Assembly (NCBI RefSeq): GCF_003018115.1
Contig: NZ_CP027457.1
Strand: one strand, 5' to 3'
Length of the DNA: 64,000 nt
DNA from: Escherichia coli
GTDB taxonomy: Bacteria; Pseudomonadota; Gammaproteobacteria; Enterobacterales; Enterobacteriaceae
Shown: positions 51,001-54,000 of the stretch, piece by piece
How positions within the stretch are numbered: the first letter of the stretch is position 1
How the letters are laid out: the number at the start of each line of letters is the position of its first letter
Program-made: the position numbers

Positions 51001-54000
51001 CCCTGCGGAGAGGTTGATTTCATTACCCGGAATGACCATCGCAATAGACAAACCGCCAACAGAGCTTAAGCAGATTGCCGCCACCATCAGCAGTAACATA
51101 GCCAGTGGATAGTCGCGCCCTGGGTTACTCATTTCATTGACGTGGGTTGCGGAAGCTTCTACGCCCATATAACTCAAAATGAAGGCAACAAATACAACCA
51201 GGGTGCCCACTTTAGAGAAGTCAGGGAAGAAGGTCTTCGAATCCATTTCGATAGCAACGGGGGCACCGGAGTGCAGATAAATAGCCGCTAATGCAATCAA
51301 AATAAATGCAGGTAACAGGATACCGGCGAAGAAGCCAACTTTAGCAATTCGCGCCGTGTATTTCGTGCCACCAAACTGCGTTAATGCCAGCGCCCAAAGA
51401 ATGATGAGTGCTGCAATAGTTTTGGTAATGGGGTCTTCATTCAGCGCTGGCCATTTCAGAATGTAGGAGAGTGCCCCTAACACGAAATAGAGCATCGGAA
51501 TAAAACCAATGGCGATTTGCAGATAGCCAAATGAGATCGCTGCAAATCCCCATCTCGGCCCCAGAGTATTTGATACCCAGGCGAAGACACCACCTTCTTC
51601 CCAGCCGTCGACGGTGGCCATTTCCGCAGCACAAAGTCCCACGGGAATAAACCATAAAATCCCGCCTAATAGCAGGAAGAAGACTAATGAAAAGCCCGAT
51701 GTTGCGAAGGTAGGGTATTCATAAACAGCCATTACCATCGATGCCGTTATGGCAAAAAAGCCGAGTAATGTGAGCTGCTTAGCTTTACCTGTCTGTACTG
51801 ATGTAGCCATATTATCCCCCTAAAACGGTATTCCTGTCGGAACCGCACCAGTTTTGTTCTGAAGCGTATTCAGAACAATATTTTCCGTTGCTAATGCCAG
51901 TGAACAGACTTTGGAAATTGTCCCGAAACGGGTTCGTTTCGGGACACCGTTACCGTTAAACGTTATCAGGTATGTTTAAAGCTGTTCTGTTGGGCAATAC
52001 CCTGCAGTTTCGGGTGATCGCTGAGATATTTCAGGGAGGCTTTGTAGTCTTCCAGCAACAGTTCAGCAAAGTCCATTTCGAAGCCGCGACGACACATAAT
52101 GCGCATCACCACGATGTCGGTGGCTTCACCGCCGAGAGTGAAGGCCGGAACCTGCCAGCCGCGCAGACGCAGACGTTCAGAGAGGTCGTACAGGGTGTAT
52201 CCCGGATCTTCACCATCTTTCAGTTTGAAGCAAACCGCCGGGATGCCTTCGTCCGGGCGACCCGTACAGATGAACTCATACGGCCCCAGTTTGGCGATTT
52301 CATCCGCCAGATAGGCAGCGACCTGGTAGGAAGCATTCTGTACTTTGGTATAGCCTTCACGACCAAGGCGCAGGAATTCATAGTACTGTGCAATCACCTG
52401 ACCTGCCGGGCGGGAGAAGTTGATGGCAAAAGTACCAATCTGACCACCCAGGTAGTCAACGTTGAACACCAGTTCCTGCGGCAGCGCTTCTTCGTCACGC
52501 CAGATAACCCAGCCGCAGCCCAGCGGAGCCAGACCGAATTTATGGCCTGAAGCACTGATCGATTTCACACGCGGCAGGCGGAAGTCCCAGACGATATCCG
52601 GGGCGACGAACGGTGCCAGGAAGCCACCGCTGGCAGCGTCGATGTGCATGTCGATGTCGATACCGGTGTCGGCCTGGAATTTATCCAGCGCATCGTGCAG
52701 CGGCTGCGGGAACTCATAGTTACCGGTGTAGGTCACGCCGAAAGTCGGCACCACGCCGATGGTGTTTTCGTCGCAGGCTTCAATCATGCGTTTCGGGTCC
52801 ATAAACAACTGACCGGGGCGCATAGGGATCTCACGCAGCTCCACATCCCAGTAGCGGGCGAATTTATGCCAGCAGATTTGTACCGGACCGCACACCAGGT
52901 TTGGTTTATCCGTTGGTTTGCCTGCAGCTTCCATACGCTTGCGCCAACGCCATTTCATCGCCATCCCGCCGAGCATACAGGCCTCGGAAGAACCAATGGT
53001 GTTGGTGCCAACGGCCTGACCATTTTTCGGCGCAGGCGCATGCCACAGATCGGCAACCATATTTACGCAACGCAGGTCGATGGCTGCGGATTGCGGATAT
53101 TCTTCTTTGTCGATCCAGTTTTTGTTAATGGATAAATCCATCAACTTGTGGACGTTTTCGTCGTCCCAGGTCTGGCAGAAAGTGGCCAGGTTCTGACGAG
53201 CGTTGCCATCAAGATATAATTCGTCATTGATAATCTGAAATGCGACATCGTCGCGCATTTCGTGCAGCGGAAAACGTTTTGATTCTGCGATAGTGGAAAT
53301 AGACTTCGCACCAAAACGTGAATCGAGTAGTTCCGACCTTAAATCCGTTACTTGCTTCTTATCCATTTTAAACTCCTTAAAATGATTGGATCGCATTAAA
53401 AAAGTAGGATTTATCGATAAAGTAAGCAAGTGCAAAGGACTCGTGTTTAAATAACAAAATCCTAATGTTATTTATCGTGAGATATTGTTAGGATAATATT
53501 TTTTCATTAAAAAACAATGCAATAGAGAATTCTTGGGTGGTGGTAAGGTGTTTTATGTTGTTATTTTTATGCGCTTTCTGTGCCTCCTGAATTATCACGT
53601 AAAAATCAGACCTTAAAATATCACTATTAGTACTTGGTTATTATTTTGAACGCATTTATAAAATTATTACATAAAAATAGCGAATATTGCTAAAATCCCC
53701 GCCAACGATGTGTTGACGGGGCTGTTATTATTTTGGCAATAATACTCCAGTATAAGTATTTACCGGATGAGAAAGATATTGTTTAACGGCAGTGTTAACA
53801 TTCTCTACCGTCATTTGTTTCAACAATTGCTCCTGCTCAGTCCATGCTGCAGGATCGTCATATTGAATAAGACTATTTACAATAGTGTTCGCTAATTGTT
53901 GAACGCTACGCTGTTGGATATCGAGGCTGCGCTGAACGTTTTGCTGGTATTCATTCAGTTCTTGCTCACTGATCCCTTTAGCCAGACGCTTAACCATCAC

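Follow-up and report, generated by a model that had tools for sequence, protein, structure and literature searches.

The intercistronic spacer of the gadBC operon of Escherichia coli, which separates the gene for the soluble enzyme GadB from that for the membrane antiporter GadC, contains a stem-loop, here called hairpin 1, that is a real RNA element with a published in vivo RNA 3' end at its base. The spacer was analyzed within a stretch of 64,000 nucleotides (nt) of contig NZ_CP027457.1 (assembly GCF_003018115.1), referred to below as the window, to which all coordinates refer unless stated otherwise. In the reading that we favor, and to which we would give roughly an even chance, hairpin 1 fixes the position of an RNA 3' end within the operon and protects that end; it probably lets cells hold more gadB than gadC message. 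It is a previously uncharacterized case of a well-known kind, the intra-operon stem-loop that forms a 3' end, and calls for no new principle; the literature searched yielded no description of this hairpin.

The window is from E. coli, and the region is 100% identical to that of strain F9792 and 98–99% identical to that of most complete genomes. In the mRNA, the gadB stop codon is followed by 19 nt, hairpin 1, a further 40 nt, a second stem-loop (hairpin 2), and 43 nt leading to the gadC AUG. An initial annotation of the window had drawn attention to both inverted repeats as stable hairpins that could act as a partial terminator or mRNA-stability element setting the GadB:GadC ratio; the sequences quoted there are antisense to the mRNA, since gadB and gadC are both encoded on the minus strand. 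Both repeats are indeed present in the spacer, and their stability is far beyond chance. The folding energies of hairpin 1, hairpin 2 and the whole spacer on the mRNA strand are -20.7, -10.9 and -54.4 kcal/mol, with z-scores of -4.8, -6.4 and -5.1, respectively, and in no case did any of 200 shuffles reach the same stability. The geometry needed some revision: the stem described as 11 base pairs (bp) is real (the 11-bp version spans 51920–51945) and extends to 12 bp in full, and the second hairpin, which had been put at about 51868–51886, has its 7-bp core at 51857–51875, about 11 nt to the left. Across the window, 10 distinct perfect hairpins with a stem of at least 10 bp were found, against 0.67 expected from composition-matched shuffles; two of them fall within these 155 nt and one is the gadC terminator.

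Of 5426 complete E. coli genomes, 5405 contain the spacer at ≥95% identity, each at a single place and without any annotated feature. Being found once per genome, it is not a repeat of the repetitive extragenic palindromic (REP) type, and the candidates of this class that were considered, namely REP, bacterial interspersed mosaic elements (BIME), enterobacterial repetitive intergenic consensus (ERIC) sequences and other dispersed intergenic repeats, were rejected on the same single-copy distribution in the 5405 genomes. A scan of positions 50000–54000 with the covariance models of Rfam 15, at E-values up to 10, returned no match in the spacer.

The in vivo evidence for hairpin 1 comes from the Term-seq data of Adams et al. 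2021 (eLife 10:e62438, supplementary file 1), which list a curated 3' end of strain MG1655 at position 1570594 on the minus strand, with 33,816.8 reads, assigned to the class 'orphan' and left uninterpreted by those authors. The coordinate was transferred to the window via locus L081; the 61-nt field of the entry starts right after the gadB stop codon, and the sequence flanking the published end is exactly the start of the gadB-gadC spacer; the corresponding window position is given in Table 1. On the same M63-glucose sheet the 3' end of the gadC terminator (MG1655 1568900, approximately window position 50221) has 70,553 reads. The reads at hairpin 1 imply that a substantial share of gadBC-derived RNA ends there in vivo.

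Comparison within the genus indicates that the stem is maintained as a structure. The E. albertii version differs at 13 of 30 positions and yet retains the stem, at -20.6 kcal/mol, with both partners replaced in three pairs (U-A to C-G once and A-U to G-C twice). In the alignment of hairpin 1, 93% of cells are paired, compared with 30–52% when the partners are slid, and a consensus fold of the whole spacer displays covariation in no helix except this one. Nine Escherichia variants all fold with energies between -14.5 and -20.7 kcal/mol. The weakest is that of O157:H7 (locus L084, strain F3113), in which a G-to-A change in the 3' arm, at the position homologous to about 51925, introduces a C.A mismatch in the middle of the stem and brings the energy to -14.5 from -20.7 kcal/mol; this natural variant could have an altered coupling of gadB and gadC. 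The tail that follows the stem reads AAUUUCC, AA-UUCC, AAAUUCC or AAACUCC across the genus, with 3, 2, 2 and 1 U, respectively, unlike the approximately 25 nt downstream of it, which are nearly invariant in Escherichia. A metagenome scan for additional covariation, conducted with the invariant 24-mer, retrieved 14 contigs only and a single new variant.

Stem-loops at the same place recur well beyond Escherichia. A scan for GadC, taking one genome per species, gave 80 loci, in 66 of which gadB lies directly upstream; 11 of these 66 spacers are shorter than 60 nt, and the census was made on the 55 longer ones, the window's own spacer included. A hairpin of -12 kcal/mol or lower starts within 50 nt of the gadB stop codon in 53 of the 55, at a median distance of 18 nt (20 nt in E. 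coli), and in 45 of the 55 spacers the stability exceeds that of 95% of the dinucleotide shuffles made from the same spacer (median z, -3.4). The hairpins form about 36 sequence groups that share no 9-mer. In the 8 nt that follow the 53 hairpins, at least six U are found in 6 cases, four or five in 13, and three or fewer in 34. This U-poor majority implies that what recurs is a stem-loop set at a constant distance past the terminating ribosome, rather than a U-tract. Many Enterobacterales and Morganellaceae additionally possess a second hairpin 30–60 nt before gadC, usually weaker and A+U-rich, as in the E. coli layout (loci L008, L012, L028, L029, L036, L048, L051 and L053 among them); in Buttiauxella, by contrast, the gadC-proximal hairpin is stronger than the first and lies directly against the Shine-Dalgarno sequence. 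In Brucella microti, gadB, gadC, glsA and hdeA are co-transcribed, and replacement of gadB has a polar effect on gadC (PMC5695133). Since a 13-bp hairpin is found between gadB and gadC in related Brucella and Ochrobactrum loci, this co-transcription and polarity imply that hairpins of this kind are read through.

With regard to the way in which the 3' end arises, hairpin 1 has the G+C-rich stem-loop of an intrinsic terminator, and the published 3' end lies within its tail; a U-tract of 7–8 nt directly after the stem is missing, in agreement with the initial annotation, which had described the hairpins as lacking a clean U-tract, and a terminator consensus scan did not call hairpin 1 terminator-like. 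With an AUUUCC tail that is short and unconserved, hairpin 1 does not qualify as a canonical intrinsic terminator and fits better among the U-poor protective 3' stem-loops or as a leaky terminator. The former class, found on Rho-dependent or processed transcripts, was described in E. coli by Dar & Sorek 2018 (NAR 46:6797; PMC6061677), who showed that many transcripts have precise steady-state 3' ends just past stable stem-loops without U-rich tails, ends which arise when RNA terminated further downstream is trimmed by polynucleotide phosphorylase (PNPase) and RNase II, and who noted that such stem-loops can become intrinsic terminators by gaining U's. Hairpin 1 resembles members of this class in being stable, in having a U-poor tail, and in the precise 3' end a few nucleotides downstream, and differs from them in lying inside an operon and not at its end. 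The mixture of U-rich and U-poor versions across species fits the class switching proposed in that study.

According to the reading that we favor, transcription would start at the gadB promoter and part of the RNAs would reach the canonical terminator past gadC, while others would have their 3' end 4 nt past hairpin 1 and remain as gadB-only mRNA. The 3' end would be made mainly in two steps: first, a downstream event, possibly a cut by RNase E in the conserved, single-stranded stretch between the two hairpins, or else the action of Rho; second, trimming by 3'-to-5' exonucleases until these are blocked by the stem. Weak termination at the AUUU tail might contribute. Intercistronic hairpins that lengthen the half-life of the upstream message are familiar from the malE-malF REP element and from the papB-papA and Rhodobacter puf operons. 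Like these stabilizers, hairpin 1 lies between cistrons and would shield the upstream, higher-expressed cistron from 3' exonucleases; unlike the malE-malF element, it is not a REP or BIME sequence and is present in one copy per genome.

A possible, if less probable, account is that hairpin 1 works as a leaky, non-canonical intrinsic terminator, at which polymerase would release a fraction of transcripts at AUUU, perhaps aided by NusA or NusG, and otherwise read into gadC. The resemblance to partial intra-operon intrinsic terminators is considerable, with a G+C-rich hairpin about 20 nt past a stop codon, a 12-bp stem closed by a 4-nt loop, read-through, and a 3' end 4 nt downstream within the only U-run; moreover, same-position hairpins followed by 6–7 U in 8 nt occur in six other taxa (Yersinia rohdei, Serratia sp., Comamonas, a soil metagenome-assembled genome, Citrobacter sp. 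and Proteus myxofaciens), and Dar & Sorek (PMC6061677) noted switching between classes through U content. However, where Yersinia, Serratia and Comamonas have full U-tracts at orthologous positions, E. coli has AUUU only, unconserved in the genus and amounting to 3 U in 8 nt, which drew no call from the scan and scores 1.5, against 4.0 for the gadC terminator, by a tail-scoring formula. In E. albertii the U-run is down to one U while the stem is actively maintained, and three or fewer U follow 34 of the 53 analogous hairpins. Either mechanism, protective stem-loop or leaky terminator, would leave a stable gadB-only RNA beside the full-length gadBC RNA.

Several observations weigh against a protective stem-loop that sets the balance of the two messages. 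The published 3' end is listed for only one of three growth conditions (M63 glucose at an optical density of 0.4) and in one dataset, and Term-seq read counts are uncalibrated for abundance. Downstream of hairpin 1 there is no excess of C over G of the kind seen in Rho utilization (rut) sites, unlike the Rho-associated class, the C/G ratio being 0.6–0.9 in 78-nt windows and exceeding 1 only inside gadC. The compensatory pairs, three in all, are confined to one lineage, E. albertii, and the wobble pairs are mixed as to the strand that folds, those of E69 and locus L086 pointing to the mRNA strand and that of O157 to the opposite one. Finally, the tables of Adams et al. 2021 contain no 3' end at a comparable hairpin downstream of gadA. 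The bicyclomycin data on Rho from the same study were obtained in LB exponential phase, contain no gadB or gadC entries, and are uninformative for hairpin 1.

The gadA hairpin, located in the gadA-gadX spacer, is like hairpin 1 in that it starts 18 nt past the stop codon, has no clean U-tract, and is followed by a co-directional gene, and is unlike it in sequence and in its 13-nt loop. As its Term-seq end is unlisted, the parallel is only partial. Homology of hairpin 1 with the gadA 3' flank was considered and rejected: the similarity of gadA and gadB stops about 4 nt past the stop codon, which makes the element specific to gadB-gadC, and the two hairpins are unrelated in sequence.

The absence of a listed end at gadA, the appearance of the gadB end in one condition and in the 'orphan' class, and the lack of compensatory change in hairpin 2 would all be expected if the hairpins were without regulatory effect, with the mapped end a short-lived intermediate of decay held up at a stable structure and translation alone setting the GadB:GadC ratio. 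We consider this unlikely in view of the compensatory change that maintains the stem of hairpin 1, the recurrence of unrelated hairpins, in about 36 sequence groups, at the same distance past the gadB stop codon, and the pace of evolution of the whole spacer, which is 3–4 times slower than that of four-fold degenerate sites (p ~ 1e-9 to 1e-12). Quite improbable, in our view, is that the repeats act in the DNA as palindromic protein-binding sites, or that an internal promoter just upstream of hairpin 2 produces a gadC mRNA with a protective 5' hairpin. Both repeats are perfect palindromes, the spacer is strongly conserved, and a weak promoter-like arrangement can be discerned by eye (TTCACT, 16 nt, AATATT; 8 of 12 matches) that would start transcription at about the foot of hairpin 2; however, a promoter scan of the spacer found none above threshold except one starting inside gadC, hairpin 1 has undergone a turnover of sequence with its pairing kept that a protein-binding site would not tolerate, and gadB replacement is polar on gadC in Brucella (PMC5695133). 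That hairpin 2 serves as the terminator of a plus-strand antisense RNA overlapping the gadC ribosome-binding site is hardly credible, even though on the plus strand (51854–51886) it is followed by TATTTTCC and called terminator-like by the scan, and even though its plus-strand stem stays stable (about -11.8 kcal/mol) in E69, E. whittamii and locus L086 while the mRNA-strand version weakens to about -6.6 kcal/mol, as the stem has only three G-C pairs, the scan finds no promoter-like site upstream on the plus strand, and Adams et al. 2021 list no plus-strand 3' end from 1570500 to 1570599 under any of their three Term-seq conditions.

The proposal of a partial terminator or stability element is supported for hairpin 1, by the Term-seq 3' end, the compensatory changes and the recurrence across bacteria; for hairpin 2 no support was found. 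No mapped RNA end lies next to hairpin 2 in the Term-seq tables of Adams et al. 2021, and in the Escherichia alignment no pair of its stem is altered on both sides. Its fourth pair (U-A) is broken in 3 of 10 sequences, and its variants fold on the mRNA strand at -5.5 to -12.8 kcal/mol, with four lineages between -5.5 and -6.6 kcal/mol. Hairpin 2 forms part of the gadC leader, as does the conserved rest of the spacer.

This leader is well conserved. Outside hairpin 1 (51811–51918), the spacer diverges by 7–10% from E. albertii, Escherichia sp. E1V33 and the divergent 'E. coli' E69, and the whole 155-nt spacer by 8–10% from other Escherichia species, whereas divergence of the window at the four-fold sites of gadC is 38.7% from E. 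albertii, 37% from E1V33 and 29% from E69; Fisher tests of spacer against four-fold sites for these three gave p = 1e-9 to 2e-7. The rest of the spacer therefore varies about four times less than synonymous sites, a pattern that suggests purifying selection and further control of gadC. Near-invariant stretches are CCAAAGUCUGUUCACUGGCAUUAGCAA and GCGGUUCCGACAGGA...CCGUUUUAGGGGGAUAAU. At position 51850 the window has a U in the mRNA sense (AACUGG), while all other Escherichia sequences examined have an A (AACAGG). According to the minimum-energy structure predicted for the spacer, AUUUCC in the tail of hairpin 1 (51911–51918) pairs with the Shine-Dalgarno region GGGGAU (51814–51820), closing the leader into one domain, which makes the tail a possible anti-Shine-Dalgarno element.

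We put forward, as a speculative and rather doubtful extension, that the spacer is a conserved two-part post-transcriptional module across gadBC operons, comprising a stem-loop conserved in structure only, which would uncouple the gadB and gadC mRNAs, and a regulated gadC leader of about 108 nt. The leader would include hairpin 2 along with GGA motifs, both at the Shine-Dalgarno sequence and upstream of it, and would be a putative target of a regulator (such as CsrA, some other RNA-binding protein or a small RNA) or contain a structural switch formed by AUUUCC and the Shine-Dalgarno sequence. If this were the case, GadC synthesis would be set independently of that of GadB. The available CsrA study treated the leaders of gadA and gadB, that of gadC lying outside its coverage. 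The gadC data in PMC5714132 concern Lactococcus and were set aside.

Table 1. Positions of the elements of the gadBC locus in the window, and of the gadA hairpin used for comparison
Feature	Position	Strand	Description
gadB coding sequence	51966–53366	minus	466 amino acids plus stop; TGA at 51968–51966; from open reading frame (ORF) list, translation and RefSeq annotation at the homologous place
gadB-gadC intercistronic spacer	51811–51965	minus	155 nt; single-copy; unannotated in RefSeq
Hairpin 1	51919–51946	minus	UGUCCCGAAACG-AACC-CGUUUCGGGACA; arms 51919–51930 and 51935–51946; perfect 12 bp, 7 G-C, 4-nt loop
Tail after hairpin 1	51911–51918	minus	AUUUCCAA; short degenerate U-run, 3 U in 8 nt
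RNA 3' end matching MG1655 1570594	51915	minus	4 nt past the stem of hairpin 1; last U of GGGACA-AUUU
Linker between hairpins	51879–51914	minus	CCAAAGUCUGUUCACUGGCAUUAGCAACGGAAAAUA; almost invariant across Escherichia (alignment)
Hairpin 2	51854–51878	minus	UUGUUCUGAA-UACGC-UUCAGAACAA; arms 51854–51863 and 51869–51878; perfect 10 bp, 3 G-C, 5-nt loop
gadC Shine-Dalgarno sequence	51815–51820	minus	GGGGGA; seen in the sequence
gadC coding sequence	50275–51810	minus	511 amino acids; AUG at 51810; from ORF and translation plus RefSeq annotation
gadC (operon) terminator	50225–50251	minus	stem GGGAGCGA...UCGCUCCC followed by UUUUU; canonical
gadA hairpin, gadA-gadX spacer	6121–6163 of locus L085 (K-12-like strain)		perfect 15 bp, 13-nt loop, tail GCUUAUUAAU

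Other structures were seen in the window. Weak sub-threshold Rfam matches at 50219–50295 are probably caused by the hairpin of the gadC terminator. A perfect 15-bp inverted repeat, TGTAACAAGCCGGTG-GGTAAAG-CACCGGCTTGTTACA, is located at 48772–48808, just downstream of a minus-strand ORF of 439 amino acids (48825–50144), and is probably the terminator or a protective hairpin of that gene. Perfect 12-bp hairpins flanked by A-runs and T-runs, at 33682–33709 and 37082–37109, look like bidirectional terminators; the second of these matches an 'orphan' Term-seq 3' end at MG1655 1555766, which has 143,837 reads in M63. Four A+T-rich perfect palindromes with arms of 10–11 bp (7871–7896, 23922–23944, 25135–25160 and 58850–58875) may be operators or terminators.

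GadB, GadA and GadC constitute the main system of extreme acid resistance in E. coli and in many orally acquired bacteria. The transcriptional control of the gad genes is well studied; the setting of the enzyme-to-antiporter ratio within the operon is not. An excess of gadB over gadC message, as envisaged here, would suit the joint production of an abundant soluble enzyme and a membrane antiporter. A stem-loop past gadB that forms a 3' end offers a concrete, testable handle on this ratio, and the conserved leader of gadC indicates where post-transcriptional regulators may be sought.

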